A stretch of DNA of 64,000 bases from assembly GCA_963720675.1 (NCBI GenBank), contig CAVRGH010000003.1, positions 175,503-239,502 on the forward strand. The letters are read 5' to 3'. The position numbers were made by a program, and so were the translations under genes. Each line of letters begins with the position of its first letter. Position 1 is the first letter of the stretch. Positions 3,969 through 46,741 of the stretch are shown piece after piece. The notes beneath the pieces were generated by a model. That model had not been told where the DNA came from and did not search any database. It saw nothing but the letters and a program-made list of their open reading frames with translations. This stretch comes from an uncultured Acidimicrobiia bacterium (GTDB lineage: Bacteria > Actinomycetota > Acidimicrobiia > IMCC26256 > PALSA-555).

Positions 3969-3972
3969 TGCC

Positions 3973-9745: not shown

Positions 9746-9756
9746 CCCCGCGCTCT

Positions 9757-9802: not shown

Positions 9803-9813
9803 CCGTCGTGCCG

Positions 9814-10590: not shown

Positions 10591-10626
10591 GCCGTACCCC
10601 CTCCGCTTCCTCGGAAGCCTGCGTTC

Positions 10627-29136: not shown

Positions 29137-30303
29137 ATGTTCGGGGCACGCCGCAACGGGCTCGCGGCGCTCGCCTTCGGGCGCGCGGGGCGCCGTCGGG
29201 CCCGCGTGCGTACCCTGGAGCCGTGGCAGCCCGCATGGGCAAGGGCCCTGGCGTGGAGCACCGTCGTCGTGCTCATGATCGTCGGCACCGGTCTCGGTGC
29301 CTCGGCGTCCCTCGGGCGCAAGGACCCCTACCCGCACGACCGCGAGCTCACGCTGTCCGACGTGCAGATGCTCGGGACGCACAACAGCTACCACGTGCGA
29401 CCGGATCGCGACCTGATCCCGAACGAACCTGCTGACTACGAGCACCCACCACTCGACGTGCAGCTCGGCAAGGAAGGCATCCGCAGCCTCGAGCTCGACG
29501 CGTTCGACGGTCCGACCTTCCCGGTGATGCACTCGCTCCTCGTCGACGAGGGCTCGACGTGCCCGACGCTCGCGGAGTGCCTGGCGACGGTGCAACGGTG
29601 GTCGCGGATGAACCCGGGGCACCTGCCGCTCATCCTGTTCGTGGAGCCCAAGGCGCTGCCCGTCAACGCGGACCCGGGCATCCAGGCGGCGCTCGACCAG
29701 GTCGTCGCCGATCGCGGCCTCGCGACCTGGGACGCGGCCGCCCTCGACCGGCTCGACGCCCTGCTGCACAAGACGTTCGGGCGGTCGCTGATCACGCCCG
29801 ACGAGGTGCGCGGCAAGCGACCCACGTTGCGCACTGCGATCACGAAGGACGGCTGGCCGACGCTCGCCGCGACGCGAGGCCGGGTGCTCGTCGTGCTCGG
29901 ATCCACCGCCGCCGAGCGCGACCTCTACCTGACCGGAGCGCCGTCGCTGCAGGGCCGCGCGATGTTCGTCCCCTCCAACGTCGCGGACCCGTATGCGGCG
30001 ATCATCAAGCGTGACGTGCCGCTCCCCAACGCGTTCCCCCGGATCGTGCAACGGAACTTCTTGGTGAAGACCCGCGCGGACGCCGACGGCGTGGAGGCCC
30101 GAGCCGGCGACCTCACGCGTGCGACGACCGCGCTCGCGAGCGGCGCAACCGTCGTCGCGACCGACTACCCGGTGGCGGACCCGAAGATCGGTGCGTACCT
30201 GGTCGATCTGCCGGGGACGGCAGTTGCGCGCTGCAACCCGGTGACCGCGCCGAAGTGGTGCCGGGACCGCGACCTCGAGAACGCCAGCGGCATGCACGGC
30301 TGA
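29137..30303 (+). CDS. PI-PLC X-domain-like (Ca-dependent phosphoinositide phospholipase C-like) phosphodiesterase, membrane-anchored/secreted
   Basis: It has an N-terminal TM/signal segment (ALAWSTVVVLMIVGTGLGA). This is followed by LSDVQMLGTHNSYHV, LELDAF, FLVKTRADADG and ASGATVVATDYP. Confidence 0.75.
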   Translation: MFGARRNGLAALAFGRAGRRRARVRTLEPWQPAWARALAWSTVVVLMIVGTGLGASASLGRKDPYPHDRELTLSDVQMLGTHNSYHVRPDRDLIPNEPADYEHPPLDVQLGKEGIRSLELDAFDGPTFPVMHSLLVDEGSTCPTLAECLATVQRWSRMNPGHLPLILFVEPKALPVNADPGIQAALDQVVADRGLATWDAAALDRLDALLHKTFGRSLITPDEVRGKRPTLRTAITKDGWPTLAATRGRVLVVLGSTAAERDLYLTGAPSLQGRAMFVPSNVADPYAAIIKRDVPLPNAFPRIVQRNFLVKTRADADGVEARAGDLTRATTALASGATVVATDYPVADPKIGAYLVDLPGTAVARCNPVTAPKWCRDRDLENASGMHG

Positions 30304-30355
30304 ACACGCTTCGCAATCTGTCCCGAATCGCGGATCCGGGACCGGGCGTCGAGGC

Positions 30356-30927
30356 TCAGGATGCGCCCGCGACGTGCTTGAGCTGGCGTTCGATCAGCAC
30401 CGGCCACTCGCCGGCCGCGTTGAGCTGGGTGATCGGGCCGGGCACGTCGCCGTCGAAGTCGTCGCGGGCCTTGACCACCCAGATCTGCTCGTCGAGCGTC
30501 CGCGGGTCGGCGGCGTACTCGACCGGCGGCGGTGTGTACACGATCACCGTCACCTGGTGCGGCCCGCGGTTCACGTAGACCTGGAACACGTCCTCGCTCG
30601 CGCAGACCCAGAGCGCTTCGATCGGGAGCAGACCGTGGTCCTCGTTCGGCATCGCAGTGTCGAGCGCCTTCACGATCCCGGCCCGCAGCACGAGGTCGAC
30701 GTGCTTGTCCGTCCACCAGCTGCCGAGCCAGTGCTTCTTGAAGTGCGCGACGTCGGCCTTCGCGAGGCCGCCCTCCCTCCGCGCTGCTCGGCGAGCTCCG
30801 CCAGGCTCGCCGAGCCCGACAGCCGCTCACGAGCGGTCTCGTACGCCTGCTGGTCGGAGCCGTCGAACTGGTCGAGGACGCCGAACTGGGTCCCCTTTCC
30901 GACGTAGTACACGGGCATCGGTGGCAT
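30356..30927 (-). pseudogene. hypothetical protein, 1-nt frame disruption near 30775
   Basis: ORF 30670..30927 (MPPMPVYYVGKGTQFGVLDQF...LAELAEQRGG) joins ORF 30356..30691 through EGGLAKADVAHFKKHWLGSWWTDKHVDLVLRAGIVKALD... if one base is added in the G-rich run. No family was recognised. Confidence 0.55.
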
Positions 30928-30990
30928 GGTTTCCTCCTACCTGGATGGACGGGTCGTGGTGACGATCGTTCCGATCGTCACCGGGTTCGG

Positions 30991-33900
30991 TCATGACGGG
31001 CACACCGCGAACAGCCGTTGCGGCTCGGAGATCCCCTTGAGCTGGAACAGCCCGCGGTCCTCGAAGCGGGACCCGGTCGATCCCGTTCCCAACACCTGGA
31101 CGACTTCGGACACCAGGGTCTCGCCGGGCGGGGCCGCCGCACAGGTCCTCGCTGCGAGGTTGACGGCGCTGCCGTGCACGCCCGTGCCCGCGCGGATCAC
31201 CTCTCCCGCGTGGATCCCGACGTGGAGCTGGAGTCCGACCGAGGAGGCGTGCGCGTGCGCGGCGTCCGCGGCATCGATCGACGCGCGCACCGACGAGAAC
31301 ACGGCGAGCAGCCCGTCACCGGGGCGGATGCCCTCGATCGTGGAGCCGCCGAGGTCCTCGATCGCCGTGCGCACGCGGGCGTCGAGGGCCTGCTGGGTCT
31401 GGAGGTACGCGAGATCACCGAGCTGCTCCGTGAGCCGGGTGGAGTCGACGACGTCGGTGAAGAGGAGGATGGCGGTGCTGCGCTCCGGGAGGCCCGGGGG
31501 CGCAGCCGGGGGCGTCGGCGCCGGCGGGAGCTCGTACCCGCACGTCGTGGCGACGTCGAGCGCTTCGTGCGCCAGGGAGGGCATCGACAGCTCGTCGAAG
31601 GTGCGCGCCGCGGCGCGGCGAGCTCGAGTGCCCGCGCCTCGTCGTGTTCGACGACCAGGCGGGCGGCCCCCAGCTGGGCGCGAGCCAGCTCCGGACGCGC
31701 GCCGATCGCGCGTGCGGTCGCGATCGCTTCGTCGTAGAGGGTCGCCGCAGTCTGGAGGTGTCCACTGCGGGCAGCGAGCTCGGCGCGCAACCGGGTGACG
31801 AGCGTCACCAGGCCCTCGGTGAGCACCATCCCGCCGTCGGCCGCATCCTCGAGCCCGCGTCCGAGCGCGTCGGCGTCGACGGGCAGCCCGCTGGCGTGCG
31901 CGAGGTCGAGGAGGGCGGCGACCCGCTGGACGGTGCCGAGCGCGACGGGCCAGTGATCGCCGGGTCGCGCCTGCCGCTCGTGCAAGGCATCCTCGACCGC
32001 GGCGACTTTTCCGTCCCCGGCGTCGATCGCCAGATCGATCAGGGTCATGGTGTCGTGGCCGAGGGCGTGGTCGAGCTCGGTCATGGTCGACGCCCAGCTC
32101 TCGAGCGCGGAGCGGGCGCCGATGGAGTCGCACTGGAGCAAGCGAGCCCACGCCAGGCCCGGGAAGAACAACGAGGCGCTCCACGAGTAGGACGAGACGC
32201 GGATCGCGGCCCATGCGGCCTCGGCGTGGTCCTCGGCCGCGGCGAGGTCACCCCGTGCGAGCGCGACGCCGACGCGGGCGGCGAGGGCCAGGCTCTGCTC
32301 GCCCCAGTCGTGGGTCTCCTCGGCCCCGTCCGCCGCGTCCCGTGCGTATCGGTCCGCCTCGTCGAGCTCACCCATCCAGAGCAGGGTCAGCGCGAGCCGG
32401 GGGAGCGGCAGGTTGGCGAGCCACGGGTCGCCGGCCGCACTCGCCGCGCGCGCGGCCTCGCGGAGACACGCGAGCGCACCGTGGAGGTCGAGGTCGAGCC
32501 ACCGGGCTTGGGCTCGGGCCATGTGGGCGCGCGCCTCGGCCTCAGGGTCCGCGTCGACGGCCACGATCGCGAGCGCCCGCTCGGCGTACGCCTCGGCGGC
32601 GCGCGTGCGACCCTGGGGCCACGACGCTTCCGCGAGCTGGGACAGCGCGCGCGCAGCGAGCACCGGGTCGATCGCCTCGAGCTCCGGGACCAGTGCGTCC
32701 AGGGGCTCGAGCTCGACCGGTTGCCCGAACGTGCCCCAGGAGACCTCGGCATGGAGGAGCCCTGCCAACGCGGCGCGCTTCGCCTCGGACGTCGCCGGCG
32801 CGGCGGAACCCGTCGGCGGCCCGGGCGAAGCGCTCCCGGCCCGGGCCAGGGTCCATGTTGCGGCAGTGCGCGTCTCCGGCTCGGCGGTGCAGGTCGGCGA
32901 TCACCTCGGGCGCAGCACCCGCGCGCGCTTCGGCGGTCGCAGCGGCGTCGAAGTCGCGCGCCGCCTCACCCCACGCCGCGAGCTGCCACGCGCGCTCGCC
33001 ACCGAGCACGCACGCCCGGGCCACCTCCGCGGGCGGCGCCTCGGCGCCGGACTGCGCATAGTGGAAGGCGACGGCCAGCGACTGCTCCCCGCGCTCCGCC
33101 GCGGACTCGGCCAGCACGCGGGCAGCCGCGAGGTGGATGCCCTCGCGTTCGGCGTCCGACAGCACGCCGAGGAGCACTCGGGCGAACACCGGATGCGCGA
33201 ACACGTACCCGTCGCCTTCCCGGGTCACGACGTGCGCGGTCACCGCGGCCCGCAGGGCTCGATCGGCCGCTTCGGGATCGCAGTTGCACAGGCGCGCGAG
33301 CACGGTGGTTCGGAACGGCTCACCGATCACCGCGGCCGTCGCGAGGACGCGGCGATCCGCGTCGTCGAGCCGGTCGATGCGGGCTCGAGCTGCGTCGCTC
33401 AGATCGTGGGGGAGCGGGAGGTCGAGGAGCAGATCGGTCGCGACCAGCTGGCCACCCTCGTCCCGCAGGGCGCCGCGCGAGAGGTACTCGACCGCCGCCT
33501 CGACCAGCAGTGGGTTCCCGTGCGTCGTCCGCACCACGAGATCGACGAGCTGCCGGGACGGGTGCTCGAGGCCGAGTGAGCGCAGGAGCTCCGCGGTCTC
33601 CCGTTCGCCCAGGCCACGAACCGCGAGGGCGTGCACGATCTCCTCCCGCTCGAGCCGGGCGAGGTGTCGGCCGAGCGGCGTGTCGGGCTCGGTCCGATGG
33701 GTCGCCGCGAGGAGGATGGGCACCTCGGCCCGCACCGCGGCATCCGCCATCTCCTGGCCGACGTGCACGAACAGATCGGCCGAGGGCCCGTCGGCCCATT
33801 GGAGATCGTCGACGGTCACCAGGAGCGGCCGGCGGCGGGCCAACGCGGAGGCCGCGCGGGCGACCGAGCGGAACAACCAGAGCTGCTCCCGGGCCGCGGC

Positions 33901-34290
33901 CGCGCCGCCGGCCGCGGGGTCGGGCACGCTGCGGTCGAGCGAGCTCGCGATCACCGCCGCGGCCTCGGCGAGCGTGGGCTCCGCGCGTGCCGCGTCGAGG
34001 AGCCGGGGGAACAGGGTGCCCTCGAACGGGTGATAGGGCAGGTCGACGTGCTCCAGGCATCGTCCCGTGAGCACCTCGAAGCCCCGGTCGCTCGCGAGTT
34101 GCTGGAGGCGGCGGAGCAGTCGCGTCTTGCCGATTCCGGCGTCGCCCGAGATGAGCACGACGCGCGGCAAGCCGCGCCGGGCCGCGCCGAGGGCACGCTC
34201 GAGGGTCGCGAGCTCGGGCGCCCGCGCAACGAACGGCCGTGCGTCGAGAGGTCGGGCTCGGCGGATCGGCTCGGTGTTCAGGCTCTCCAT
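30991..34290 (-). pseudogene. STAND (AAA_16-type) NTPase - TPR-like helical repeats - C-terminal class III nucleotidyl cyclase, 2 frame disruptions (~32770, ~31615)
   Basis: ORF 32542..34290 has Walker A VLISGDAGIGKTRLL and Walker B LLVTVDDLQWAD. ORF 31197..32768 is a long Ala/Leu-rich helical repeat region. ORF 30991..32214 ends in the cyclase domain, LLFTDVVDSTRL...PGDGLLAVF...HGSAVNLAAR...FQLKGI. The three frames abut with no other coding candidate. Confidence 0.8.
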
Positions 34291-34425
34291 CTCCCCGCGA
34301 CCCCCCCGCCCAGTGGAATCGTGGGCACCACGGTACGGGGGTCGGCCCCGACGGTCCAGACCGTCGTCCGAGCTCGGGGGCGTCGTGGCCCGCCGGGGGC
34401 GCGGAAGGTCAGTCGGCCGGTGATG

Positions 34426-35271
34426 TCAGGAGTCCGCCGCGACGGTCTCGCGCATCCAGTCCTCGACCTCGTCTTCGTCGGTGTCATCGCCCAACGGGCC
34501 GGGCGAGAACCAACCGAGCAGGAACAGGCCCACGGTCGGGACCAGGAGGAGCGGGATCCACACCGAGCCGCTCGGGCTGACGAGCAGGAGCAGCGAGAGG
34601 AAGAGGGTGAGCGTCACGCCGACGCCGACCCCGACGAGCGCGAACCGCAGGCCTCGCCGCCAGCGGTTGCGCGGCAGCTTGCGGCGCCCGACCGCGATCC
34701 AGATCACCGTGATGCTCGCCACGGTCACGACGGCGACGATGAGCGCGAAGAGGCTCACCAGCGACGTGGCCGATCCGCGCACGTCGACCGTGAAGTTCCG
34801 CGACGCCAGCTCGGCGCGGTCGGGATCGATGAGGCGAATGGCGGCGGGGAGGAGCCCGTTCGCCTGTTGACCCAGGTCGACGAACTCGACCGGCACGTCG
34901 ACCTTGGTGCGCTCGCCCGGAGCGATCTGGGCGTTGATGGTCACGTCGTAGGCGAGCAGGGTGATCCCGAACGCCTTGCCCCGGATCTGCACCTGACGGA
35001 CGGTGAGCGGGGCGAGGGTCGTGTTCAGCATCGACAGCGACAGCATCGACACCTTGTCGGGGTCGAGCACGATCGGATCGCCGGACGACGAGAGGCCGAG
35101 TCGCTGCCCGTCGAGCGCGGCACTGAACGCGACCGAGGGTCGGGCTGCGGCGCGCGTCGAGGCGGCACCGACCGGCGCGGCCAGGACGAACGCGAGCCCC
35201 GCGAGCGCACCGAGCACGACGCAGCACGTGGCCGCGACGAGACGCGAGCGACGCGGGTGTCGGTTGGCCAT
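34426..35271 (-). CDS. membrane protein: signal peptide + ~150-aa extracytoplasmic domain + 3-4 TM helices + acidic tail (paralog of the kinase-linked sensor module)
   Basis: 281 aa. The segment IRLIDPDRAELASRNFTVDVRGSA followed by TM helices aligns with LRFLDRNKDELRTAEFRLDADRAA followed by TM helices in the upstream gene. Confidence 0.75.
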   Translation of the reverse strand: MANRHPRRSRLVAATCCVVLGALAGLAFVLAAPVGAASTRAAARPSVAFSAALDGQRLGLSSSGDPIVLDPDKVSMLSLSMLNTTLAPLTVRQVQIRGKAFGITLLAYDVTINAQIAPGERTKVDVPVEFVDLGQQANGLLPAAIRLIDPDRAELASRNFTVDVRGSATSLVSLFALIVAVVTVASITVIWIAVGRRKLPRNRWRRGLRFALVGVGVGVTLTLFLSLLLLVSPSGSVWIPLLLVPTVGLFLLGWFSPGPLGDDTDEDEVEDWMRETVAADS

Positions 35272-35274
35272 GGT

Positions 35275-37715
35275 TCAGTCCTCCGAGTCCGAGTCGGAGG
35301 TTTCGTCGTCCGGCTCGTCGTCGGGTGCCGGTGCTTTGCCGCCGGAGATGCGGGTTTCGCGGGCTTCGGGGGACTCGGGTGCTTTGCCGCCGGAGATGCG
35401 GGTTTCGCGGGCTTCGGGGGACTCGGGTGCTTTGCCGCCGGAGATGCGGGTTTCGCGGGCTTCGGGGGACTCGGGTGCTTTGCCGCCGGAGATGCGGGTT
35501 TCGCGGGCTTCGGGGGACTCGGGTGCTTTGCCGCCGGAGATGCGGGTTCGTGGGCGGCGGCGGTGGCGTCGGGGTCTTGCCGCCGGAGATGCGGGTTTCG
35601 TGGGCGGCGGCGGTGGCGTCGGGTGTCTTGCCGCCGGAGATGCGGGTTTCGTGGGCGGCGGCGGTGGCGTCGGGTGTCTTGCCGCCGGAGATGCGGGTTT
35701 CGTGGGCGGCGGCGGTGGCGTCGGGTGTCTTGCCGCCGGAGATGCGGGTCTCGTGCGCGGCAGGCGACCCGGCATCGGCGGCGTGGACGCGCGCCGGTGC
35801 AGCGGGGACGCCGGCGACGACAGGCTCGAGATCTTCGGGCGCGGCGCGACGCGCTTGCGCGAGCGCGAGACGGCGCCGACGGCCGGAGATGAGCACGGCG
35901 CGCGCGATCGCGAGGAACGCGCCGACACCGAGCAGGACCCCGGCGAGCATCGTCGGCCAGGTCGGCTGGGGGCCTCCGAGCGCCCAGACGACGTCGACGA
36001 TCGCGGCACCCGCGACGCCGCCGAGGATGCCCATGCCGATGAACGCCGAGGTGCGCTGACGGCCGCGGCGCAGCGGCAAGGTGAGCGACCAGCCGTAGGT
36101 GATGATGAACGCGAGCACGAGGAGACCGATGAGCCCGTTCGCCGCGAGCACCGCCGCCCGGTCCGCGTCGAGGCGGAACTCCGCGGTCCGCAGCTCGTCC
36201 TTGTTGCGGTCGAGGAATCGGAGCTCACCCGTGGCCTTGCCGGCCAGGAGGATCCGGACTCGCTGCGCATCGATGTGCGCCCGGAACCCGCCGCTGCCGT
36301 CGGGCGTCAGCACGGCCGACCGCGACGGCGGCAGCTGCAGACCGAGGGCCGAGAAGCCGAGTCGCACGTACCGGGCGTCCTGGGTGCCTGCGGGGAGGTT
36401 CTGCAGTCGTACCGGGACGTCCTCCGAGAGGTTGACGTCGACCGTCCGGTCGGTGCTGATGTCGACGCCGGCGACACGCACGGTTCCCGAGCGGAGCCCG
36501 TTCGCCGCCGGCTCGGCGTCTCCGATCCCGAGGACGCTCACCAGGGCGAGCAGCACGACCAGGAGGCTCGCGAGCGCGAACGCGAGGCGCGGCGGCTTCG
36601 GCGGCTTGATGAGGTCGTCGACGCGGACGAGGTCTTCGGGCCGTAGCTCGTCGATGCGCACCCCGCCCCGGGGCACCGCCGTCGCGCGCATCCGCAGCGG
36701 CGGGTCCAGCGGGACCGGTGCGCCCTGGCCGGCGATCATCGTCTCGCGGCCCGTCGCGCTCGGCGCGCCGGCGCCGGCCGACGCCGGCCTGCGTGGCCGG
36801 TCCGGCGGCGATGGTGATCGGTCCCGGTGCCACGAGGGTGATGTCGGCCTGGCCCAGCCAGCCGGTACCGAACGACTCGGTGGCGGCCTCGGCGAGCGCG
36901 ATGCCGAACGCTTCGGCGCTCGCGTACCGATCGTCGGGGTCGCGCACGACGGCGCGCATCGTCACCTCGGCGAGCGGGATCGGCACGTTCGGGGCGACGT
37001 CGAACAGCTGCTGGGGCTCCTCGTGGACGCGACGTTCCAGCACCTCGAACGATCCGCCGTCGAGCGAGAAGGGGAGCGACCCGGACAGGAGCTCGTAGAG
37101 CACCGTGCCGGTCGCGTACACGTCGGCGGGCGGACCGCACGAGCGACCTTCGGCCTGCTCGGGCGCCATGTATGCGGGAGTGCCGATGACCGCGCCATCG
37201 ACCGTGGTGACGGTCTCCTCGCCGCCGAAGACCTGGGCGATGCCGAAGTCGGTGATCTTGAGCGTGTGGTCGGCCGCGAACATGAGGTTCTCGGGCTTCA
37301 CGTCACGGTGGAGCACGCCCCGCTCGTGCGCGAACTGGAGACCGGCGCAGGTGGCGAGCACCGCGGTGCACGCGGTCGCCATGGTGATCCCCTCACCGGT
37401 GAAGCGGTCCCAGAGCGTGCCGCCCGGGAGCGCTTCCATCACGAGCAGACAGAGGCCCTCGCGCTCGACGTAGTCGTACACCGGCACGATGTGCGGGTGC
37501 GCGAGGGCAGCGAGCGTGCGCGCCTCCTGGCCGAAGCGGTGGCGCACGTCTTCGTCGGCGGCGAACGCGGCCGGCAGCTGCTTGATGGCGACGTCACGCT
37601 CGAGCTGGCGGTGATGCCCGGCCAGCACCACGCCCATCGCGCCGCGCCCGAGCTCGCCGCCGACCTCGTAGCTCGGAAGCGCGTTCTGAACTGGCGTCAG
37701 GGTGACCTGGACCAT
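35275..37715 (-). pseudogene. Hanks-type Ser/Thr protein kinase apparently continuous with a 4-TM sensor and a repeat-rich C-terminal tail (frame disruptions ~36775, ~35574, ~35547)
   Basis: The kinase starts at ATG 37715. It has GELGRGAMGVV, VAIKQL, HRDVKPENL, ITDFGIA and YMAPEQ. After ...ITIAAGPATQAG its frame degenerates into 170 Arg-rich codons that overlap ORF 34484..36739. That ORF encodes linker, TM (LAFALASLLVVLLALVSVLGI), an extracytoplasmic domain, 3 TM helices and the repeats. The repeats finish in the frame of ORF 35275..36270 (...ISGGKAPAPDDEPDDETSDSDSED), whose stop lies 4 nt before the next gene's start. Confidence 0.75.
35331..35760 (-). repeat. coding tandem repeats: ~4.5 x 48 nt followed by ~4 x 51 nt, encoding 9 copies of ETRISGGK(T/A)P
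   Basis: The 48-nt unit is gtgctttgccgccggagatgcgggtttcgcgggcttcgggggactcgg (starts at 35331, 35379, 35427, 35475, 35523). The 51-nt unit is gtcttgccgccggagatgcgggtttcgtgggcggcggcggtggcgtcgggt. The hybrid junction unit lacks one T (35547-48) and one base at ~35574. Confidence 0.9.
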
Positions 37716-37913
37716 CGGGTGCCCCAACCCTCGTCGTCGCCGTGTGTGCGGTCGCCGCCCGTCCGCGGCCCCACCGCGGGAACCGCGGCAACCTAGCGCA
37801 GCGAGTGCCCGATCGCCGAGCGACTCCGGCGCCCGCCCGCCCGGTACGATCGCCCCATCGATACTCCGAGCACGTCCTCTTCTTCTGCCGCCGCGGGCAT
37901 CCCCCTCGTCGAG

Positions 37914-39272
37914 GTGCGCCAGCCGAAGTGCAAGCCGCTGGTCATCGCCGTGCGGGACGTGGTCGACATCGGACGCGACTGCGACGGGCTGCTCCTGTCG
38001 GACCCCGAGGTATCGCGTCGCCACGTCTCCCTGACCCTCGACGGCGATGCCGTGGTGCTCGAGGATCTCGGGAGCACCAACGGAACCATGCTCAACGGAA
38101 CGACGATCACCGGCCCCGTGCACCTCGACGAGGGAGACGTCGCGCTCCTCGGCCGAACCGAGCTGCAGCTCTTGGCGGTCACCGGCCGCGGCCGCCCGGT
38201 GCGCAAGCCGATGCCCATCAGCGGGGCGGTCACGGGCGTCGTGACCGACCCCCGCAGCTCGCCGGCGGCCGGGGCCGTCGTGCGGGGGAAGGCCGACACC
38301 TCCGGCGCCCGCATGACCTCGATCGACGCCATGGCCGACGCGGTCGACGAGGAGCAGGCCAAGGTCGCCAAGCTCGCCGCCGGCGGCGGCACGATCACGA
38401 TCGTGTTCTCCGACATCGAGGCGTCCACCACGATGGCGATGTCGTTGGGTGACACCAAGTGGTTCGAGGTGCTCGGCGAGCACAACGAGATCATCCGCCG
38501 GAACCTCAAGGCCCACGGGGGGACCGAGATCAAGTCCCAGGGCGACGGCTTCATGCTCACGTTCCCCGGCGCCCGGGCCGCCATGCTCGCCATGATCGAC
38601 ATCCAGCGCGACCTGGCCGAGCGGGCCGCAGGTGGCACCGACGCCCCGATCCGTATCCGCATCGGGATGCACACCGGTGAGGCCATCGTCGACGCCGAGG
38701 GTGACCTCTTCGGCAAGCACATCATCATGGCGGCGCGGATCGGGGCGCTGGCCGAAGGCGGCCAGATCCTGGCGTCGTCGATCACCAAGGAGATCACGTC
38801 CAGCCGCGGCGACCTGGCGTTCGGTCCGGCGCAGGAGGTGACCCTCAAGGGCATCGAGGGCACCTACCAGGTGTACGAGGTCCTCTGGACCGATCCCGCC
38901 ACGACCGACGATCGGGACGAGCACGCCGGCCGAGTGATCCCGGGCCCGGTCGGGGCCGGATCCGGAGGTCGAGCGGACCGCATGGAACCGAGGCTCCGTA
39001 TGGAGTACCTTCTGACCACGGAGCGTGGTCGAGCCGTCGTGCACTTGGGCGCACGGCGGCAGGGACGCTCCCGAAACAGCAAGGGGTGCTGGGAGCTTGC
39101 GGTTGTCAGGGCGGCGCGCGACGCGCATGGGTGCAGCGGCATTTGCCGCCATGCTTGCTTGCCTCTCGTCGGCCGCGCTCGCGGTCGCCGCGCCCCTCAC
39201 CGACCCGTCGACGCCCGTCGGCGCGCAGGTCGGCACGCTCGACGTCACCCTCTCCGTCTCCGGGACGCCTGA
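37914..39272 (+). CDS. FHA domain - class III adenylate/guanylate cyclase fusion protein (true 3' end probably near 38.9 kb)
   Basis: The start is GTG 37914. The FHA domain reads IGRDCDGLLLSDPEVSRRHVSLTL...LEDLGSTNGTMLNG. The cyclase domain reads IVFSDIEASTT...EIKSQGDGFMLTF...RIGMHTGEAIV...LFGKHIIMAARI...LKGIEGTYQVYEVLW. Downstream of about 38900 the ORF is Arg-rich and overlaps the next gene's signal peptide. Confidence 0.85.
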   Translation: MRQPKCKPLVIAVRDVVDIGRDCDGLLLSDPEVSRRHVSLTLDGDAVVLEDLGSTNGTMLNGTTITGPVHLDEGDVALLGRTELQLLAVTGRGRPVRKPMPISGAVTGVVTDPRSSPAAGAVVRGKADTSGARMTSIDAMADAVDEEQAKVAKLAAGGGTITIVFSDIEASTTMAMSLGDTKWFEVLGEHNEIIRRNLKAHGGTEIKSQGDGFMLTFPGARAAMLAMIDIQRDLAERAAGGTDAPIRIRIGMHTGEAIVDAEGDLFGKHIIMAARIGALAEGGQILASSITKEITSSRGDLAFGPAQEVTLKGIEGTYQVYEVLWTDPATTDDRDEHAGRVIPGPVGAGSGGRADRMEPRLRMEYLLTTERGRAVVHLGARRQGRSRNSKGCWELAVVRAARDAHGCSGICRHACLPLVGRARGRRAPHRPVDARRRAGRHARRHPLRLRDA

Positions 39273-42200
39273 CCCGAACCTCGGCGAGGGTGCGCCGTAC
39301 GTCGTCGCGGTCACCTGTCGCGCGCCGGCGGGCACGGTCGCCCAAGGTTCACTGACGTTCGACGGCCCGTCGACGAAGACCGATCAGTGATCTCCCGGTC
39401 GGCGCCACGTGCACCGCGGTCGAGACCACTGACGGTGGCGCGGACTCGGTCAGCATCGACCCATCCGCCGGCGTGACGATCGACGCAGGCGCGCCGGCGA
39501 AGATCAACGTGGCGAACGCGTTCGCCCCGGCGGCCGATCCGACGACGACGACGACCTCGACGCCGCGTGCGACGAATATCGACGGCACTCCGGCGCCGAC
39601 CGCGCTCCCGGGTCCTGCTCCTCTGCCCGACGACGATGGCGTTCCCGCCTCGATCGAGAACGGGGTCCCGAACGGCGGTGACGGCAACGGAGACGGCATC
39701 GCCGACGCCGAGCAGGCGAACGTGGCGTCGCTGCCGAGCAAGTACGACGTGAACGGCGACGGCGCGTTGAACGACTACGTCACGATCGAGTCGCCGGCAG
39801 GCACGTCGATCGCGAACGCGCGCACCATGATCGTGCCCGCCGACAACCCGCCGCCGGATGGCGTCGCACTTCCCGCGGGCCTGATCGACTACGACGTCCA
39901 CGTCATCGCCCCTGGCGACCGGGCGGACGTGAAGCTCTTCCTGCCCGACGGCACGCAGAGCGCCGTCTACATGCTCCAGAACGGCCAGTGGACGAACTTC
40001 GGCAACCACTCCACCATCGACGACACCGCGAACCGGGTCACGCTGCAGCTCGCTGACGGTGGCGCGGGCGACCGGAGCGGTACCGACGGCGTGATCCACG
40101 ACCCGGTCGGTGTCGCGCAACCCGGTGCGGCGAGCACGGTCACCATCCGCAACGAAGTGTTCCCGGACGGCTCCGCGCAGTCGTTCGGCTTCACGATCCT
40201 GGATTGCGGGAGCAACTCGAACCCCGGGACCTGCACCGCGACCGGGAATGTCCCTGCCTCACCGAACAACACGGTCGCGCTCGCCGACAACAGTGAGCAC
40301 ACCTTCACGGTCGCGAACCCGAGCAACCGCTGGTTCCGGATCGGGGAAGCCGCCGTCGCGGGCTGGAGCAGGGTTGCCGTCACCTGCACCGGATCTGCCG
40401 GCGGCACGAACCAGCAGGTCGATGTCGCGAACGGCTTCGGCTTCGTCCGGCTCAACTCGTCCATCGGGGGCGCGTGCACGTTCTCGAACGCGGAGAACCA
40501 GTCGATCTCGGTCGTGAACTCGACGACGCCGAGCGGGGAGCGGTCCGTTCTCCTTCACGCTCGAGCGCTGCGGGTCGACCAATGGCGTGTGCACCATCGT
40601 CAACGGGAACGAGCCGTGGAGCCAGCTCGCGGGGACGCCGAACCTGTTGGACACGCAGGTCAACACGTGGACGGACGCGAACACCAGCAACCAGATCAAC
40701 TTCGACGAGTGGTACCGACTGCGCGAGCCGTCGCTCCCGCCGAACTGGACCCTGAGCAGCATCAGCTGTAGCGGTGGCGCGAGCGTCCAGACGAACTCGC
40801 AGAACTCGAGCGTTCCCACGAACGGTGTCGTCTTCAAGATCCAGAACACGACTGGCCAGACGGGCATCGTGTGCACGTTCAACAACGCGTTGATCGCTCC
40901 TGGGGCCGACGGCACGATCTCGATCACGAAGCAGACGACGCCTGACGGAGCACCGGAGACGTTCACGATGCGGCTGCAGCGTTGCGGCGGCAGCACCACG
41001 TCGAGCAACGCCTGTGACAGCGGCGACCCGTACGTGCCGACGGACCACCAGGCGATCTCGGATGGTCAGAGCGCCATCTGGGGCCCGGGTGCAGCGAACA
41101 TGAGCGTCCCGGGCCGCTTCGAGATCCGTGAGACCATGCCGCCGGGTTGGACGCTCGCCGACGTCGAATGCACCGGTGGCACCGGACTCACCCACGTCAC
41201 GCAGATCAACAACACGGCGAATGGCGTGACGCCTGCTCACGGTGTCCGATTCGGCGCCTCCGGTCTCACCCCAGGTGTCCAGTGCACGTTCACGAACCAG
41301 GAACCACAGCCCGGCACGATCACGGTCCACAAGGGCGGCACCCGCAACGGCGGCGGCCAGAACGGCACCAACTACGCGAACGGTCTGGGTGGCGCGTCGT
41401 TCGAGTACCAGACGTCGGCGGGGCCGACGACGACTGGCACCCCCTGTGCACGACCGACGGGTCGGGCGACTGCACCGGACCGCCCTCGCCGGTGCCCGCG
41501 GGCACCTACAACGTCCGCGAGCAGCCCGGTGGATCGCCCTCCGGGTGGACCGACGTCCCGTCACTGACCTATGGCGGGAACGGGAGCGGTGCGGGGAACT
41601 CGGCGCACCCGTACGTCGGTACCGCGACCGTGCCGCCGAACGGTGGTTCGGCCGAGGTCACGATGGCCTCGAACCCGCTCGTGAGCGGGCGCGGGCACCA
41701 GTTCATCAACATCGGAACAACCCGCCGCTGCCCACCGAGTGCGGGAGCAAGATCGCCTTGATCCTCGACCGCTCGGGATCGATCTCGGGCAGACTGCAGA
41801 GGTACCGGGATGCCGCGAACGGTTTCATCGACACGCTCGCGAACACCCCGACGCAGGTCCAGATCTACAGCTTCGGCAGCAACGCCATTGCGAACACCGG
41901 TGTGCTCGACCTCTCCCAACCCGGTGACGTCACTGCGGCCCACACCGCGATCACCAACGTCTACAACCTCTTCGGGGGCAGCGGTAACTTCGACGCCGCG
42001 TTCCAGGCGATCAGCGGCGGCTTCGACACCGCGTTCATCCTGACCGACGGGAACCCGACGAGTGGAACGGGAACGTCAACAACGCGGGGCTCCCGACGCT
42101 GAACAACATCGAGGCCAGCATCGCCTCGGCCAACACGGTGCGGACCTCGGCGCACATCATCGCCGTCGCCGCCGGAACCGGCGTCACTGCCCACCACCCT

Positions 42201-42856
42201 CCAGGTGATGTCGGGCCCCGGCGACTACGTGACGAACGGGCTCGTCGGACTCCAGCCGACGCTCGACTCGATCGCGAACGGCTGCTGCGGCGCGGATCCA
42301 CGTGAAGAAGGTCGTCGGCGACACGCCCGCGGCGGGCTGGGAGTTCACCGGCACGACGCCGAACCCCGGCGTCGAGGTGTCCTACCCGGGGGGTCAGGTC
42401 ACCGACGCCAACGGTGTGATGCGGGTGAACCTCGACTCGGTACCGCGGGCGGAGTCGACGGCGTCGAGGTCGCCGAGGATCTGGCGAGTCAACCGGGCTA
42501 CGTGTTCTCGAGCGCGAGCTGCTGGAGCGACGAGTTCAACGGATCGCGAACCGGTCGGCCGGCGTCGGTGACCGGTGGGAGCGACCCTCCGTGACGTTGC
42601 CGACCGTTCATCGGAACGAGGACGTCTACTGCACGTTCAAGAACCTCCAGTCCGGGCACATCGTCCTGCAGAAGCACACGATCGGCGGTGACGGCACCTT
42701 CCACTTCACCTCGGCCGCGCCGGTCGGGGACGCACGACATCACCACGTCGGGCGGCAACGGTCAGGCCGGACCGATCGAGGTGCCGCCGAACACGACGAC
42801 CGGGTACTCGGTGACCGAGACGGACCCGTCGCCCGGCTTCGACGTTCACCGGTCCG
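39097..42856 (+). pseudogene. N-terminal half of a giant secreted surface protein (signal peptide, prealbumin/Cna-B-like domains, Asp-rich Ca-binding-like segment, VWA domain), about 11 frame disruptions
   Basis: The signal peptide is (L)RLSGRRATRMGAAAFAAMLACLSSAALAVAAP, with the start at TTG 39097 or ATG 39127. The conserved read is continuous only with frame switches near 39378, 40541, 41412, 41713, 42060, 42183, 42293, 42441, 42585, 42727 and 42845. The VWA core reads KIALILDRSGSISG...FIDTL...VQIYSFGSNA...ILTDGNPT...IIAVAAGTGV. Repeated modules end in C-x-F-x-N (CTFSN, CTFNN, CTFTN, CTFKN). Confidence 0.7.
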
Positions 42857-45800
42857 GTGCAGTGCACCGACCCGATCGAAGGCAACGCGTCCGACGTCAG
42901 CGGCGGTCGCACCGCGGTGATCAAGGTCGACCCCGGCGAGACGGTGACGTGCACCTGGACCAATGCGAAGCGTCCGACGGTCACGGTCGAGAAGTCGAGC
43001 TCGGGTGGGGATGGGACGTTCGCGTTCGCGTTGGCGGGGTCCGGTGGTTCGACGAAGGATGTGACGACGGAGGATGGTTCGGGTTCGGCGACGTGGGGTC
43101 CGGCGGATCTGACGCCGGGTGGCACCTACACGTTGAGCGAGACGGTGTTGTCGGGTTGGGCGTCGCAGTTCACGGGGTGTGTGAACACGGCGGTGGAGGG
43201 TGATCCGGCGATCGGGACGGAGCTGGTCGAGGGTGTGGGGGTCACGTTGGACCCGCTGCCGGCCGGCGCGACGGTCGAGTGTTCGTTCACGAATGCGAAG
43301 CGTCCGACGGTCACGGTCGAGAAGTCGAGCTCGGGTGGGGATGGGACGTTCGCGTTCGCGTTGGATGGTCCGGGTGCTCCGGGGTCCCAGGATGTGACGA
43401 CGGAGGATGGTTCGGGTTCGGCGACGTGGGGTCCGGCGGATCTGACGCCGGGTGGCACCTACACGTTGAGCGAGACGGTGTTGTCGGGTTGGGCGTCGCA
43501 GTTCACGGGGTGTGTGAACACGGCGGTGGAGGGTGATCCGGCGATCGGGACGGAGCTGGTCGAGGGTGTGGGGGTCACGTTGGACCCGCTGCCGGCCGGC
43601 GCGACGGTCGAGTGTTCGTTCACGAATGCGAAGCGTCCGACGGTCACGGTCGAGAAGTCGAGCTCGGGTGGGGATGGGACGTTCGCGTTCGCGTTGGCGG
43701 GGTCCGGTGGTTCGACGAAGGATGTGACGACGGAGGATGGTTCGGGTTCGGCGTCGTGGGGTCCGGCGGATCTGACGCCGGGTGGCACCTACACGTTGAG
43801 CGAGACGGTGTTGTCGGGTTGGGCGTCGCAGTTCACGGGGTGTGTGAACACGGCGGTGGAGGGTGATCCGGCGATCGGGACGGAGCTGGTCGAGGGTGTG
43901 GGGGTCACGTTGGACCCGCTGCCGGCCGGCGCGACGGTCGAGTGTTCGTTCACGAATGCGAAGCGTCCGACGGTCACGGTCGAGAAGTCGAGCTCGGGTG
44001 GGGATGGGACGTTCGCGTTCACGTTGGATGGTCCGGGTGCTCCGGGGTCCCAGGATGTGACGACGGAGGATGGTTCGGGTTCGGCGTCGTGGGGTCCGGC
44101 GGATCTGACGCCGGGTGGCACCTACACGCTGACCGAGACGGAGGATCCGGCGTACGTGTCGACATCCACCGGGTGCACCTACTCGGTGAACGGCGAGGAG
44201 CTGGGTCCCATCGGCTCGCCTGGCGAAGGAGCGAGCGTCGACCTCGACAGCATCCCGGCGGGTGCGGACGTGACGTGCTCGTTCACCAACGTGCACAAGG
44301 CTCGGATCCAGGTGCGGAAGGTCACCGATCCCGCCGGCCAGCCCGACGAGTTCACGTTCTCCCTGAACAGCACGCCGCCGCAGCAGGTGACCGCCGCAGG
44401 CGACGACCCGAGCGCGACGGCGTTCTCGAACCTCGTGCCCGCCAACGTCGAGTACGCGGTGACGGAGACTGGCATCCCCGCGGGACCGCCCGCATGGGAC
44501 CCCAACGGTGGCGTCTGCCAGCAGGAAGTCGCGGGCGTGCTCACGGGCACCCCCGTCAACGCGGCCAGCGTGACCCCCGGGCCGGGCGAGACCTGGACGT
44601 GCACGTTCACGAACACCAAGCGCGCCACGATCACCGTGAAGAAGCAGACGACACCGTCGAGTCCCGAACAGGGCTTCGACTTCAACCTCTCCGGCGGTCC
44701 GACCGCAGCGGACCCGATCACCGGTCTCACGTCCGGCAACGCCAACGGTCAGCAGTTCGCTCCGGCTACCGGAGTGAAGCCCGGCACGTACACCGTCGCC
44801 GAGGTGAACATCGACCCCGGCTGGTACCTCGACTCGTCGTCGTGTGACCGCGCCGATGTCGCGGGTGACGATGCGGCGTCGCCCACGACCCTGCAGGTGA
44901 AGGCGGGCGAGAACTGGATCTGCACCTTCCAGGACACGAAGTACGGGCAGATCACCGTGCAGAAGGTGACGAACCCGGCGCAGGATCCGACGAACTTCGA
45001 CTTCGCGTTCACGGGGCGACCGGGCTTCCAGCTGGCCGATGGTGGGTCGCAGGCCGAGACGCTCTTGAAGCCCGGTGCGTACGACATCACCGAGACGGTG
45101 CCGAGCGGGTGGTCCTTGACCGGCGTGACCTGCGATGAGATCGCGCAGACGCCGGTGAACGGCAAGATCACGGTGAACCTGACCGCCGGGCAGAACGTCA
45201 CTTGTACCTACACGAACACGAAGCTCGGCCAGATCACCGTGCAGAAGGTGACGAACCCGGCGCAGGATCCGACGAACTTCGCGTTCGCGTTCACGGGCCG
45301 TCCGGGCTTCCAGCTCGCCGGTGGTGGGTCGCACGCCGAGCCGAACCTGCTGCCGGGTGCGTACGACATCACCGAGACGGTGCCGAGCGGGTGGTCCTTG
45401 ACCGGCGTGACGTGCGGTGAGGTCGCGCAGTCGCCAGTGAACGGCAAGATCACGGTGAACCTGTCTGCGGGGCAGGACGTGACGTGCACCTACACCAACC
45501 TGAAGCTCGCGCAGATCACGGTGCGGAAGGTGACGACGCCGGCGCAGAACCCGACGAACTTCGCGTTCGCGTTCACGGGCCGTCCCGGCTTCCAGCTCGC
45601 CGGTGGTGGGTCGCACGCCGAACCGAACCTGCTGCCGGGTGCGTACGACATCACCGAGTCCGTGCCAACCGGTTGGGTGTTGACGAGCGTGGCGTGCGAC
45701 GGCGTGCCGCAGAGCCCCGTGAACGGCAAGATCACGGTAAACGTGGCCGCGGGGCAGAGCTCGACCTGCACGTACACGAACGTGCTCAATACCGCACCGT

Positions 45801-46741
45801 TCACGGTGCTGAAGGACTTCTCCGACGGGAACCCGGCAGCGGTCTCGGTGAGCGTGCAGTGCACCGCGGGATCCGTGTTCGCCAACGACTCGAGCGCCTC
45901 GGAGGCGGACCCGGCGCGCTTCACGGTGAGCGGTTTCGTGTCGGCGGCCGCGACCACGTGCACCGCAACCGAGTCGAACGTCCCGGTCGGCTACTCGAGC
46001 TTCGGTTCCTGCAGCGCGTCCCTCGCTGCGGGCACGTGCACGATCACCAATGTCCTGAACACCGCGTCGTTCATCGTGGGGAAGGACTTCACCGACGACA
46101 ACCCGGCCGACGTGACGGTGGCCCTGGAGTGCAGCGCCGGGAACGTCACGACCGTCGATCCCACCGCGTCCGAGTCCGATCCCGCGAACTTCACGGTGAG
46201 CGGGTTCACCAACCGAGCGGCGACGACGTGCACCGCGACAGAGTCGAACGTCCCGGCCAGCTACACGGATTCGGGGCCGTGCACGGCATCCCTCGCCGAC
46301 GGCGCCTGCACGATCACCAACACGCCCGTGGTCGTGGTTGCCGGGATCGTCACCAAGGTGTCGACGGACTCGGCGTTCCTGCGTCGTGCGCTGGTCGCGG
46401 GTGAGTCGGTGCAACTGTCCGGTCGCGTTCCGGCGGACTGCAGCCCGATCCTCCGCATCGACGGCCAGACCCTGGGGCCCGTCGACACGGCCCGCAACGG
46501 CGACTTCGACCTCGCGGTGCCGACCCGAGACCTGTCGACGGGCAAGCACGTCGCGGAGGTCGCGTGTAAGAACCGCAATGCGGTGCTCGTGCGCAAGACC
46601 TTCTGGATCGCCGCGCCGATCAGCAGCTCGAACATCCTCTTCATCGCGCTGGCGTCGCTGCTGGTGCTGTTCGGGATCGGCTGGGTCGCCCTCCGGACCC
46701 TCGCCGGCAACTCCACCGAACCCCGACCCGTCGCTCCGTAG
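42857..46741 (+). CDS. C-terminal half of the giant surface protein: about 11 prealbumin/Cna-B-like repeat domains and a C-terminal TM anchor (intact 1294-codon frame)
   Basis: ORF 42857..46741 contains 4 near-identical 110/111-aa repeats, 3 repeats of ~93 aa (QITVQKVTNPAQDPTNF...TCTYTN) and 2 repeats of ~85 aa (FTVLKDFSDGNPA...CTITN). It ends in the TM helix ILFIALASLLVLFGIGWVAL. No LPXTG motif is present. The frame reads on from the upstream disrupted part (TGPVQCTDP...). Confidence 0.85.
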   Translation: MQCTDPIEGNASDVSGGRTAVIKVDPGETVTCTWTNAKRPTVTVEKSSSGGDGTFAFALAGSGGSTKDVTTEDGSGSATWGPADLTPGGTYTLSETVLSGWASQFTGCVNTAVEGDPAIGTELVEGVGVTLDPLPAGATVECSFTNAKRPTVTVEKSSSGGDGTFAFALDGPGAPGSQDVTTEDGSGSATWGPADLTPGGTYTLSETVLSGWASQFTGCVNTAVEGDPAIGTELVEGVGVTLDPLPAGATVECSFTNAKRPTVTVEKSSSGGDGTFAFALAGSGGSTKDVTTEDGSGSASWGPADLTPGGTYTLSETVLSGWASQFTGCVNTAVEGDPAIGTELVEGVGVTLDPLPAGATVECSFTNAKRPTVTVEKSSSGGDGTFAFTLDGPGAPGSQDVTTEDGSGSASWGPADLTPGGTYTLTETEDPAYVSTSTGCTYSVNGEELGPIGSPGEGASVDLDSIPAGADVTCSFTNVHKARIQVRKVTDPAGQPDEFTFSLNSTPPQQVTAAGDDPSATAFSNLVPANVEYAVTETGIPAGPPAWDPNGGVCQQEVAGVLTGTPVNAASVTPGPGETWTCTFTNTKRATITVKKQTTPSSPEQGFDFNLSGGPTAADPITGLTSGNANGQQFAPATGVKPGTYTVAEVNIDPGWYLDSSSCDRADVAGDDAASPTTLQVKAGENWICTFQDTKYGQITVQKVTNPAQDPTNFDFAFTGRPGFQLADGGSQAETLLKPGAYDITETVPSGWSLTGVTCDEIAQTPVNGKITVNLTAGQNVTCTYTNTKLGQITVQKVTNPAQDPTNFAFAFTGRPGFQLAGGGSHAEPNLLPGAYDITETVPSGWSLTGVTCGEVAQSPVNGKITVNLSAGQDVTCTYTNLKLAQITVRKVTTPAQNPTNFAFAFTGRPGFQLAGGGSHAEPNLLPGAYDITESVPTGWVLTSVACDGVPQSPVNGKITVNVAAGQSSTCTYTNVLNTAPFTVLKDFSDGNPAAVSVSVQCTAGSVFANDSSASEADPARFTVSGFVSAAATTCTATESNVPVGYSSFGSCSASLAAGTCTITNVLNTASFIVGKDFTDDNPADVTVALECSAGNVTTVDPTASESDPANFTVSGFTNRAATTCTATESNVPASYTDSGPCTASLADGACTITNTPVVVVAGIVTKVSTDSAFLRRALVAGESVQLSGRVPADCSPILRIDGQTLGPVDTARNGDFDLAVPTRDLSTGKHVAEVACKNRNAVLVRKTFWIAAPISSSNILFIALASLLVLFGIGWVALRTLAGNSTEPRPVAP
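42965..44129 (+). repeat. coding tandem repeat, units of 330/333/330/(172) nt (a-b-a-b pattern), about 99% identical between like units
   Basis: Unit starts (gcgaagcgtccgacggtcacggtcgag) are at 42965, 43295, 43628 and 43958. By eye I see about 1 substitution between the two a units and about 2 between the two b units. Confidence 0.9.

Follow-up and report, generated by a model that had tools for sequence, protein, structure and literature searches.

We analyzed a stretch of 64,000 nucleotides (nt) from an uncultured Acidimicrobiia bacterium (IMCC26256; PALSA-555), namely, positions 175,503 to 239,502 of the forward strand of contig CAVRGH010000003.1 in assembly GCA_963720675.1. This stretch is called the window below, its own coordinates are used throughout, and labels beginning with L or P denote the homologous loci and proteins with which it was compared. 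Near its center, the window holds a receptor-type Hanks Ser/Thr kinase, a stand-alone paralog of that kinase's sensor module, and, on the opposite strand, a gene that joins a forkhead-associated (FHA) domain to a class III adenylyl cyclase (FHA-cyclase) (Table 1). Comparison with related genomes indicates that these genes are the core of a conserved three-gene Acidimicrobiia module consisting of a receptor kinase, a stand-alone sensor paralog, and a predicted cytoplasmic FHA-cyclase. The trio is flanked on one side by a gene combining a STAND-type NTPase, tetratricopeptide (TPR) repeats, and a second cyclase domain (STAND-cyclase) and on the other by a gene for a giant surface protein. Because the window has a G+C content of ~71%, raw lists of open reading frames (ORFs) were useless, and reading frames were traced with a plot of third-codon-position G+C content (GC3) and a Viterbi frame path over the 64-kb window. 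Pfam searches of the raw and corrected proteins recovered four signaling genes over both strands and agreed with the domains proposed in a first-pass annotation of the sequence: Pkinase, FHA, two Guanylate_cyc domains, and AAA_16, all at the expected places and on the expected strands, with TPR_12 in the STAND-cyclase staying below the Pfam cut-off (21 to 27 bits).

Table 1. Features of the locus in window coordinates (aa, amino acids; TM, transmembrane helix; AF2, AlphaFold2; pLDDT and pTM, its predicted local distance difference test and predicted template modeling scores; TRF, Tandem Repeats Finder; MIDAS, metal ion-dependent adhesion site)
Feature	Position	Strand	Remarks
Receptor-type Hanks Ser/Thr kinase	35275..37715	-	816 aa corrected; window lacks 8 nt (36764-36781), 1 nt (35573), and 1 nt (35546)
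Kinase domain	36924-37670	-	Pkinase 6.5e-48 in raw ORF, 1.6e-47 in corrected protein
Juxtamembrane linker motif GRETMIAG	~36728-36751	-	One copy in kinase linker
Kinase sensor module (TM1, ~110-aa Ig-like beta-sandwich, 3 TM)	35890..36586	-	AF2 pLDDT 90.3, pTM 0.83
Tandem repeat array, kinase cytoplasmic tail (predicted)	35330..35766	-	TRF 8.8 copies, 95% matches; followed by acidic end
Stand-alone sensor paralog	34426..35271	-	281 aa, intact; TM1, beta-sandwich, 3 TM, acidic tail ending EDWMRETV
Divergent intergenic region, kinase/FHA-cyclase	37716..37913		~200 nt; from gene starts
FHA plus class III adenylyl cyclase gene	37914..38937	+	340 aa after dropping extra C at 38918
FHA domain	~37965-38150	+	Pfam FHA 1.8e-14 (raw ORF)
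Cyclase domain of FHA-cyclase	~38391-38876	+	Pfam Guanylate_cyc 4.1e-16 (raw ORF)
STAND(AAA_16)-TPR-class III cyclase	30991..34290	-	1099 aa after 1-base deletion at 32772 and G insertion after 31619
AAA_16 of STAND-cyclase	33751-34236	-	Residues 19-180; Pfam 3e-26 raw, 7.2e-26 corrected
Cyclase domain of STAND-cyclase	31030-31467	-	Residues 942-1087; Guanylate_cyc 7.9e-08 raw, 9.7e-07 corrected
ORF without known family	30359..30826	-	156 aa; strong GC3 signal; no Pfam or PADLOC match
Giant surface protein	39127..46741	+	~2540 aa; signal peptide, DUF5979, many SpaA-type Ig-like domains
VWA-like segment of giant protein	~41715-42186	+	Split over three frames; DRSGS MIDAS-like motif
Conserved membrane-proximal domain and C-terminal TM anchor	~46370-46720	+	End of giant protein

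Receptor kinase, sensor paralog, and FHA-cyclase

The kinase motifs are all present (VAIK at residue 42, HRDVKPEN at 136, DFG at 156, and APE at 184), and the closest solved structure to the catalytic domain is that of PknB (E 4e-47). By fold and motifs, then, the gene encodes a Hanks-type, PknB-like Ser/Thr kinase for which phosphotransfer is predicted. The N-terminal kinase domain is followed by a linker, four TM helices that enclose an ectodomain, and a 205-aa tail, which the four-TM topology predicts to be cytoplasmic. Corrections to the frame were taken from two other contigs, L088 and L089, described below. Uninterrupted orthologs of 759, 712, and 642 aa share the kinase-sensor layout and, together with the corrected translation, confirm that the kinase is fused to a four-TM sensor with a Thr-repeat tail, as the first-pass annotation had proposed. 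The tail array comprises nine units, five of HETRISGGKTPDATAAA (51 nt) and four of RETRISGGKAPESPEA (48 nt), with two spacer types around an invariant ETRISGGK core, and its motifs span residues 658 to 797 of the corrected protein. The second half of the array is out of frame in the window because of 1-nt deletions in units 4 and 5; once these are corrected, the nine units present the anticipated series of identical potential phospho-acceptor sites. A phmmer search of 1.84e9 representatives found the sensor module in 190 clusters, and 38 of the 43 long members carry N-terminal kinase motifs.

The paralog starts 4 nt past the kinase stop. It has no Pfam match, and every one of its 99 detectable homologs is annotated "hypothetical." A BLASTP comparison of the kinase sensor with the paralog was not significant (E = 0.25). 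When profiles of nine kinases and thirteen paralogs were aligned with hhalign, the sensor and paralog matched at 98.2% (E 4e-13, 257 columns) and the ectodomains alone matched at 94.6% (E 7e-8). The AF2 model of the paralog (pLDDT 84.9) likewise has the architecture of the kinase sensor, with TM1, an eight-stranded beta-sandwich, and three further TM helices. The profile alignment and the matching models indicate that the two are true, distant homologs, so that the same-strand sensor paralog of the first-pass annotation is genuine even though BLASTP was insufficient to detect the relationship. Foldseek searches returned only generic Ig-like sandwiches, both for the kinase ectodomain (RhoGDI and NPC2) and for the paralog (RhoGDI/UNC119/NPC2/CARDB type), and for that reason no ligand could be inferred.

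In the FHA-cyclase, the residues that contact phosphothreonine (pThr) in the FHA domain (G20-R21, S34-R-R-H37, and S54-T-N56-G57) are the same in all of 16 diverse homologs compared, and the catalytic residues D167, K207, D211, D264, and R275 are invariant as well. The closest solved structure to the catalytic domain is that of Ma1120 (E 8e-36), in which an Asn (GRNVAMAAR) occupies the position of an invariant His (GKHIIMAAR) in the FHA-cyclase family. Activity is plausible given the residues retained, and because His replaces the active-site Asn, we treat catalytic competence as an assumption. The combination of FHA and Guanylate_cyc domains is found in >1,000 database proteins, and those FHA-cyclase homologs with a source name come from Acidimicrobiia metagenome-assembled genomes (MAGs); one protein, P0001 from L089, matches 95% of the query at 100% identity. 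In the uncorrected window sequence, the ORF extends to 39272, and it had been read as running straight into the giant gene. That reading is false. The extra C at 38918, identified by comparison with L089, destroys the stop codon; the C termini of P0001 and P0002 read ...PAE*, the L089 product ends in ...DDRESAPAE* ~190 nt before the giant gene, which starts at 39127 with a Met and a signal peptide of its own.

To examine the neighborhood of these genes, 80 GTDB-representative loci fetched with an FHA-cyclase profile, together with several metagenome contigs, were searched with pieces of the kinase, sensor, paralog, giant protein, and STAND-cyclase, and a neighbor-joining tree was built from 56 full-length FHA-cyclase loci. 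Kinase, paralog, and FHA-cyclase are linked in about 20 Acidimicrobiia loci, in three gene orders. The linkage of kinase and paralog marks three FHA-cyclase clades and is present in every member with enough flanking sequence; the orthologous kinases share 56 to 89% identity in the kinase domain, compared to ~35% for other kinases. Clade A (the window, L001, L002, L006, L007, L008, L086, L087, and L009) has the kinase divergent from the cyclase, with spacings of 220 to 280 nt in L001, L002, L007, L008, and L086, except that L009 has the paralog convergent with the cyclase. In clade B (L011, L012, L014, L015, L018, L020, and L023) cyclase and paralog converge, with the kinase on the far side of the paralog, while in clade C (L019 and L032) paralog and then kinase lie about 3 kb upstream. 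Other FHA-cyclase clades lack the orthologous kinase, and several have a different Hanks kinase 0.65 to 0.8 kb downstream. Overall, a Hanks kinase lies within 8 kb in 25 of the 33 FHA-cyclase loci with at least 5 kb of flank. These distributions indicate that the trio is conserved beyond chance and that the set of five genes is not; thus, of the co-occurrence to be checked in relatives, the trio held across three clades and the STAND-cyclase did not. The linkage of a Hanks kinase to an FHA effector, in the manner of PknF and Rv1747 (discussed below), is among the conserved features, and pThr-dependent binding is predicted from a candidate motif, RETx[IV]xG.

Several other genes were seen around FHA-cyclases. 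At L037 (10848 to 15305), a protein of ~1,480 aa combining BTAD (SARP), kinase, STAND NTPase, TM, and WD40 parts follows the FHA-cyclase on the same strand, and L027, L030, and L039 have the same arrangement, judged by position. Genes with cNMP_binding domains lie within 10 kb of the FHA-cyclase in L002-4 (13613 to 14029), L085 (12890 to 13975 and 20722 onward), L087 (2667 to 3095), and L009 (four genes, 2539 to 9819). In the window, 20 kb from the module, a minus-strand gene (10679 to 12311, with a frameshift near 10900) encodes an MFS_1 transporter with a C-terminal cNMP_binding domain, a possible cyclic-nucleotide receptor.

A candidate phosphothreonine relay to cyclic AMP

The RETx[IV]xG motif is kept across orthologs while its spacer, copy number, and position vary. 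Its core, ETR[IV](S/G)G, is conserved in L001, whose tail has at least five in-frame copies of ARETRISGGK, and in L009, where ARETRVGG occurs >12 times in the juxtamembrane linker. P0278 has four copies of RETIAPG in its linker, and related kinase motifs include ARETTV (four copies in L002) and RDTTIT (two copies in L085). Single copies of the form RET/HET/SET-x-[IV]-x-G are found in many kinase linkers, with GRETMIAG present in the close relatives of the window as well, and the clade-A paralog ends in EDWMRETV. Between relatives, the copy number thus ranges from 0 to >12. The C termini of clade-B paralogs (L018, L020, L063, L015, and L011) carry tandem HESG(D/S).. or RSGGFAQ repeats and no RET motif; being Ser-based, these repeats are not expected to be FHA ligands.

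The most economical reading of the conserved trio is a phospho-relay from kinase to FHA-cyclase. We put the probability at roughly 0.55 that the kinase phosphorylates RETx[IV]xG motifs, which would then dock the FHA-cyclase and control cyclic AMP (cAMP) synthesis at the membrane. In outline, a surface signal would change how the ectodomains of kinase and paralog associate, turning the kinase on; this signal would probably involve the TM-anchored, SpaA-like or VWA surface protein that accompanies the module. The kinase would then phosphorylate Thr in the RETx[IV]xG motifs, of which the window has one copy in the linker and nine in the tail, and in the related RETV with which the paralog ends. 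FHA domains recognize pThr exclusively, and that of the cyclase would dock on the phosphorylated sites of kinase and paralog. As class III cyclases work in dimeric form, docking would concentrate and dimerize the cyclase at the membrane, setting local cAMP synthesis. Readers of the cAMP could be cNMP-binding proteins, whose genes often lie close by in relatives. The first-pass annotation had predicted a phospho-dependent cyclic-nucleotide relay with two arms: the kinase/FHA-cyclase arm stands, with its trio conserved, its catalytic and pThr-contact residues intact, and its Thr motif recurrent, and the STAND arm does not.

Several points weigh against this relay. The repeat tail is not universal: it is missing from L086, and in most of the 190 sensor-kinase clusters the tail is just short and basic. 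The tails of clade-B paralogs carry HESG (Ser) repeats. The motif is hydrophobic at pT+2, and FHA domains usually select pT+3. The FHA-cyclase family has His where the Ma1120-type active site has Asn. The count of 25 of 33 loci with a nearby kinase is a raw figure, uncorrected for how densely these genomes carry kinases. A nonexhaustive scan of the window turned up no phosphatase close to the locus, and the case rests wholly on MAG sequence.

A different use of the same genes would be an intramolecular switch, in which the kinase phosphorylates the linker of the FHA-cyclase and the FHA domain binds it in cis, as in GarA or OdhI, turning the cyclase on or off; the repeats in the kinase tail would then serve some other purpose. 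In its favor, the 70-aa linker is rich in Thr and Ser and terminates in an invariant R-x-T-S-I-D (T135, S136), the PDB matches include the FHA domain of GarA, and modules that lack tail repeats (L086, for example) nevertheless retain the FHA-cyclase. However, R-x-(T/S)-S-I-E is also found in Ma1120, which has no FHA domain, so that the conserved stretch may be just the N-terminal helix of the cyclase, and the switch would leave unexplained why RETx[IV]xG is conserved and amplified in the kinases. We regard the switch as unlikely to be the main mode of control, and it is compatible with the docking relay rather than exclusive of it.

Neighboring genes and reading-frame breaks

The product of the giant gene had been described as a VWA-containing surface protein of 7.6 kb whose link to the signaling genes was only positional. 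It is a surface protein and has the DRSGS motif, but VWA_2 (24.1 bits, cut-off 27) and VWA (21.3 bits, cut-off 23.8) both fall below the Pfam thresholds in a segment split between frames, and the protein consists mainly of DUF5979/SpaA_4 repeats (SpaA_4 1.8e-68). Pfam found no VWA match in the L086 ortholog. There is no LPxTG sequence in the giant protein, which ends in a conserved domain and a TM helix; with SpaA domains and no sorting signal, it does not appear to be a sortase-anchored pilin or adhesin of the SpaA type. All 11 frame changes in the gene lie before 42856, in its first 3.7 kb. The last 3.9 kb is free of such errors and holds domain repeats of 333 nt (3.6 copies) and 282 nt (3.1 copies).

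The C-terminal anchor module of this protein adjoins the trio in seven of eight clade-A loci, in four different arrangements. Homologs beside the trio were found in L001, where the module lies downstream of the cyclase; in L006, where it is convergent with the cyclase; in L002-4, as a mini-protein of 164 to 271 aa between kinase and paralog; in L086, where a 2,485-aa protein separates kinase and paralog; in L087; and in L009, which has another type of repeat. Because the anchor module follows the trio in differing positions, the link is more than positional, as the first-pass annotation had understated, and the association of the module with a cell surface protein appears to be conserved. At the corresponding position, a SipW-like signal peptidase is encoded in clade B along with small secreted proteins. 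Genes for S26/SipW-like signal peptidases were seen at L011 (12601 to 15487) and L012 (13492 to 14973), in the gap between kinase and paralog, and near the module at L085 (14244 to 15701); such neighbors hint at a link to the assembly of surface fibers. Tentatively, and with more doubt than attaches to the relay itself, one may extend the scheme outward: the receptor kinase and a kinase-less co-receptor would read the state of the adhesin, and a multivalent pThr array would cluster the FHA-cyclase in assemblies close to the membrane, such that adhesion or surface stress would yield a local burst of cAMP with its gain set by repeat number. If true, this would be a bacterial counterpart of receptor-kinase docking-site signaling, with 9 sites here and >12 in L009.

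The STAND-cyclase carries a Walker A (GDAGIGKT) and a Walker B (LLVTVDD) motif, and its AAA_16-type P-loop and repeat sensor assign it, on predicted architecture, to the STAND NTPases. A frameshift correction at 31697 was tried and rejected, as it gave Arg/Gly-rich nonsense; the correction at 31619 restores TPR-like sequence. The closest solved structure to the catalytic domain is that of Rv1900c (E 2e-22). The metal-binding Asp residues (FTD and GDG) and the Asn and Arg of VN.AAR are kept, and the substrate positions are noncanonical (E/T with a 2-aa insert at the Lys position; G/N/R at the Asp position). Since the Lys/Asp pair is absent, nucleotide specificity is not predictable.

Relative to L001, the STAND-cyclase and the 156-aa ORF form an insertion of ~4 kb between PI-PLC and the paralog. 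The insertion is the sole exception to the synteny of the window with L001, which runs through an ABC transporter, a CMAS methyltransferase, PI-PLC, the module, a 279-aa protein, and DUF302, and it was otherwise seen only in L088, from the same species. No STAND-cyclase was found in L001 (89% identical), L002-4, L085, L086, any clade-B or -C locus, or any other kinase-linked locus, and homologs recognized by the cyclase domain lie in unrelated neighborhoods in L090 and L091. The search with the catalytic domain returned mostly fragments from error-prone contigs and therefore yields no architecture frequency. Given its absence from the syntenic L001 and from all other kinase-linked loci, we infer that the STAND-cyclase is a neighbor inserted in this species only and not a member of the module.

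This distribution bears directly on the model that wires all five loci into a single system, in which the FHA domain gates one of two cyclase outputs and a STAND switch the other. The genes are adjacent and co-oriented in both the window and L088, another FHA-cyclase clade adjoins a BTAD-kinase-STAND-WD40 protein, and single proteins of 1,450 to 1,600 aa that fuse kinase, AAA_16, TPR, and cyclase in Thermoleophilia offer Rosetta-stone-type support. Yet the STAND-cyclase is missing from the relatives listed above, its L090 and L091 homologs sit in other contexts, and it shares its insertion with an unrelated ORF, which makes the five-locus model distinctly improbable. The STAND NTPase-TPR-cyclase had been placed correctly as to domains, position, and strand (with TPR subthreshold); its membership in a wired system was not borne out, and the dual cyclase output is at best a species-specific adjacency. 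Because Thermoleophilia do fuse these domains, a functional link may exist in this species, albeit unsupported by conservation. The fusions were observed at L069, L073, L079, L080, and L084 (~6000 to 10600, plus strand), in Thermoleophilia/Solirubrobacterales, and their cyclase has the canonical K/D pair.

The insertion could also be a mobile antiphage cassette, a nucleotide-signaling STAND sensor like Pycsar or Avs that has nothing to do with the kinase module. Its lineage-specific character, the STAND NTPase and TPR sensor architecture, the noncanonical substrate residues, and a weak PycC match would all suit such a cassette. A PADLOC scan for antiphage systems (Pycsar, Avs, and others) gave no significant match in the insertion, however: the PycC match (15 bits, E 0.0026; range, 15 to 23 bits) reflects generic class III homology, the 156-aa ORF has no PADLOC match, and no effector-like partner was recognized. 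Together with the closest solved relative, Rv1900c, being a cyclase of housekeeping type, and with neighborhoods in L090 and L091 unlike defense islands, this leaves the cassette very unlikely.

Throughout the module and across all 64 kb, the coding signal keeps jumping frame on the same strand without a stop or start, a pattern consistent with an unpolished long-read MAG. Six breaks fall within 30991 to 39272 (at 31619, 32772, 35546, 35573, 36764-36781, and 38918). L088, a 15-kb contig of the same species from another sample of the same project, is 98.1% identical over window positions 30239 to 40116 and has the same genes, with 26 indels in 9.9 kb. Its FHA-cyclase is broken at 38343 and it has an indel of its own at 35899, at both of which the window is intact; conversely, L088 is intact at all three kinase breaks of the window, and of the indels at 31619 and 31697 each assembly has one. 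L089, a 2.8-kb short-read contig from the Joint Genome Institute (JGI) with 97.5% identity, differs from the window only by the 8 nt missing from the kinase linker and the extra C at 38918, and both its FHA-cyclase and the part of the kinase that it covers, the initial 428 aa, read without interruption. In every frame-shifted segment, GC3 keeps its coding level, and the corrected proteins were therefore taken as real products. The nearest assemblies have Flye-style contig_N names (L001 and L088) or belong to an MFD MAG (L005); the closest genome contig, L001/L005, has 89% protein identity and is labeled "uncultured Acidimicrobiia bacterium MFD05684.bin.2.108." The extra C at 38918 is common to the window and L088 (P0059) and absent from the short-read L089; a systematic error and a real variant are both conceivable. 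Because the breaks fall at different places in independent assemblies of this species, the frameshifts are best explained as indel errors of long-read-style metagenome assembly and not as marks of pseudogenes. That the locus is truly decaying, a worry raised in the first-pass annotation, with kinase, STAND-cyclase, and giant gene as pseudogenes, is hardly credible: the six indels that disrupt frames within 8.3 kb, the 11 further ones in the giant gene, and a C shared by two assemblies would fit it, but the indels are mostly assembly specific, L089 reads through, the codon signal is undiminished, and the same frame changes run all over a window whose nearest relatives bear the names of such assemblies. 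The practical lesson is that frameshift-ridden long-read MAG sequence can mimic both gene fusions and pseudogenes.

Comparison with known signaling systems

In line with the first-pass view that this is not a described system, a literature search found no paper on a kinase/FHA-cyclase module and no description of a kinase partner or mechanism for FHA-cyclases. Cross talk between Ser/Thr phosphorylation and cyclic nucleotides is poorly documented in bacteria, and the module suggests a direct, testable wire between them in abundant uncultured Acidimicrobiia of soil and water. The work also defines a receptor module (TM, Ig-like sandwich, and three TM helices) that is nearly always kinase fused in its ~190 clusters and has stand-alone paralogs, as well as a short linear motif whose copy number varies widely between relatives.

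Class III cyclases with AAA ATPase and TPR parts are known from the mycobacterial proteins Rv0386, Rv1358, and Rv2488c, which have an N-terminal cyclase, an AAA ATPase, TPR, and a C-terminal LuxR helix-turn-helix (HTH). The STAND-cyclase resembles this type in combining class III cyclase, AAA_16, and TPR, and it lacks the canonical Lys/Asp pair as does Rv1900c (LipJ). Its order is reversed, however, with the ATPase N-terminal and the cyclase C-terminal, and Pfam found no HTH in the corrected protein, so that it does not belong to the Rv0386 type. Among FHA-cyclases, the cyanobacterial Cya1/CyaD-type FHA adenylate cyclases, for which our literature search brought no confirmation, and other stand-alone FHA-cyclases share the two-domain FHA plus Guanylate_cyc architecture; the family in the window differs in being actinobacterial and in having a Ma1120-like catalytic domain with His for Asn.

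PknB and its FHA partners FhaA, FhaB, and GarA provide a precedent in which juxtamembrane Thr motifs serve as FHA docking sites. The kinase domain described here is PknB-like, and the ETTS of GarA resembles ARETTV and RETR, whereas the kinase lacks PASTA domains, does not lie in a cell division locus, has a putative cyclase output, and carries its motif amplified into tandem arrays of 9 to >12 copies. A further parallel is the threonine phosphorylation pathway PpkA-Fha-PppA of the T6SS (type VI secretion system; preprint 10.1101/2023.12.21.572528). There, too, a TM Hanks kinase with an extracytoplasmic domain acts through an FHA protein on a cell envelope structure, but at this locus the FHA protein is an enzyme rather than a scaffold, and no T6SS genes or phosphatase were found nearby (phosphatases were not scanned for exhaustively).

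A comparable arrangement is that of PknF and Rv1747 of Mycobacterium tuberculosis, in which a Hanks kinase lies adjacent to an FHA effector that reads kinase-made pThr (PMC3138270, PMC8339232). Both systems place a TM Hanks kinase beside an FHA effector, the pThr sites of Rv1747 lie in a disordered segment, and the presence of several pThr sites and several FHA domains makes clustering possible. They differ in that the effector here is a soluble class III cyclase with a predicted second-messenger output rather than an ABC transporter, that the candidate pThr sites are on the kinase and paralog rather than on the effector, and that the kinase has an Ig-like four-TM sensor. Compared to known kinase-FHA signaling, the features that appear to be new are therefore the predicted cyclase output, the receptor module, and the amplified candidate docking motif.

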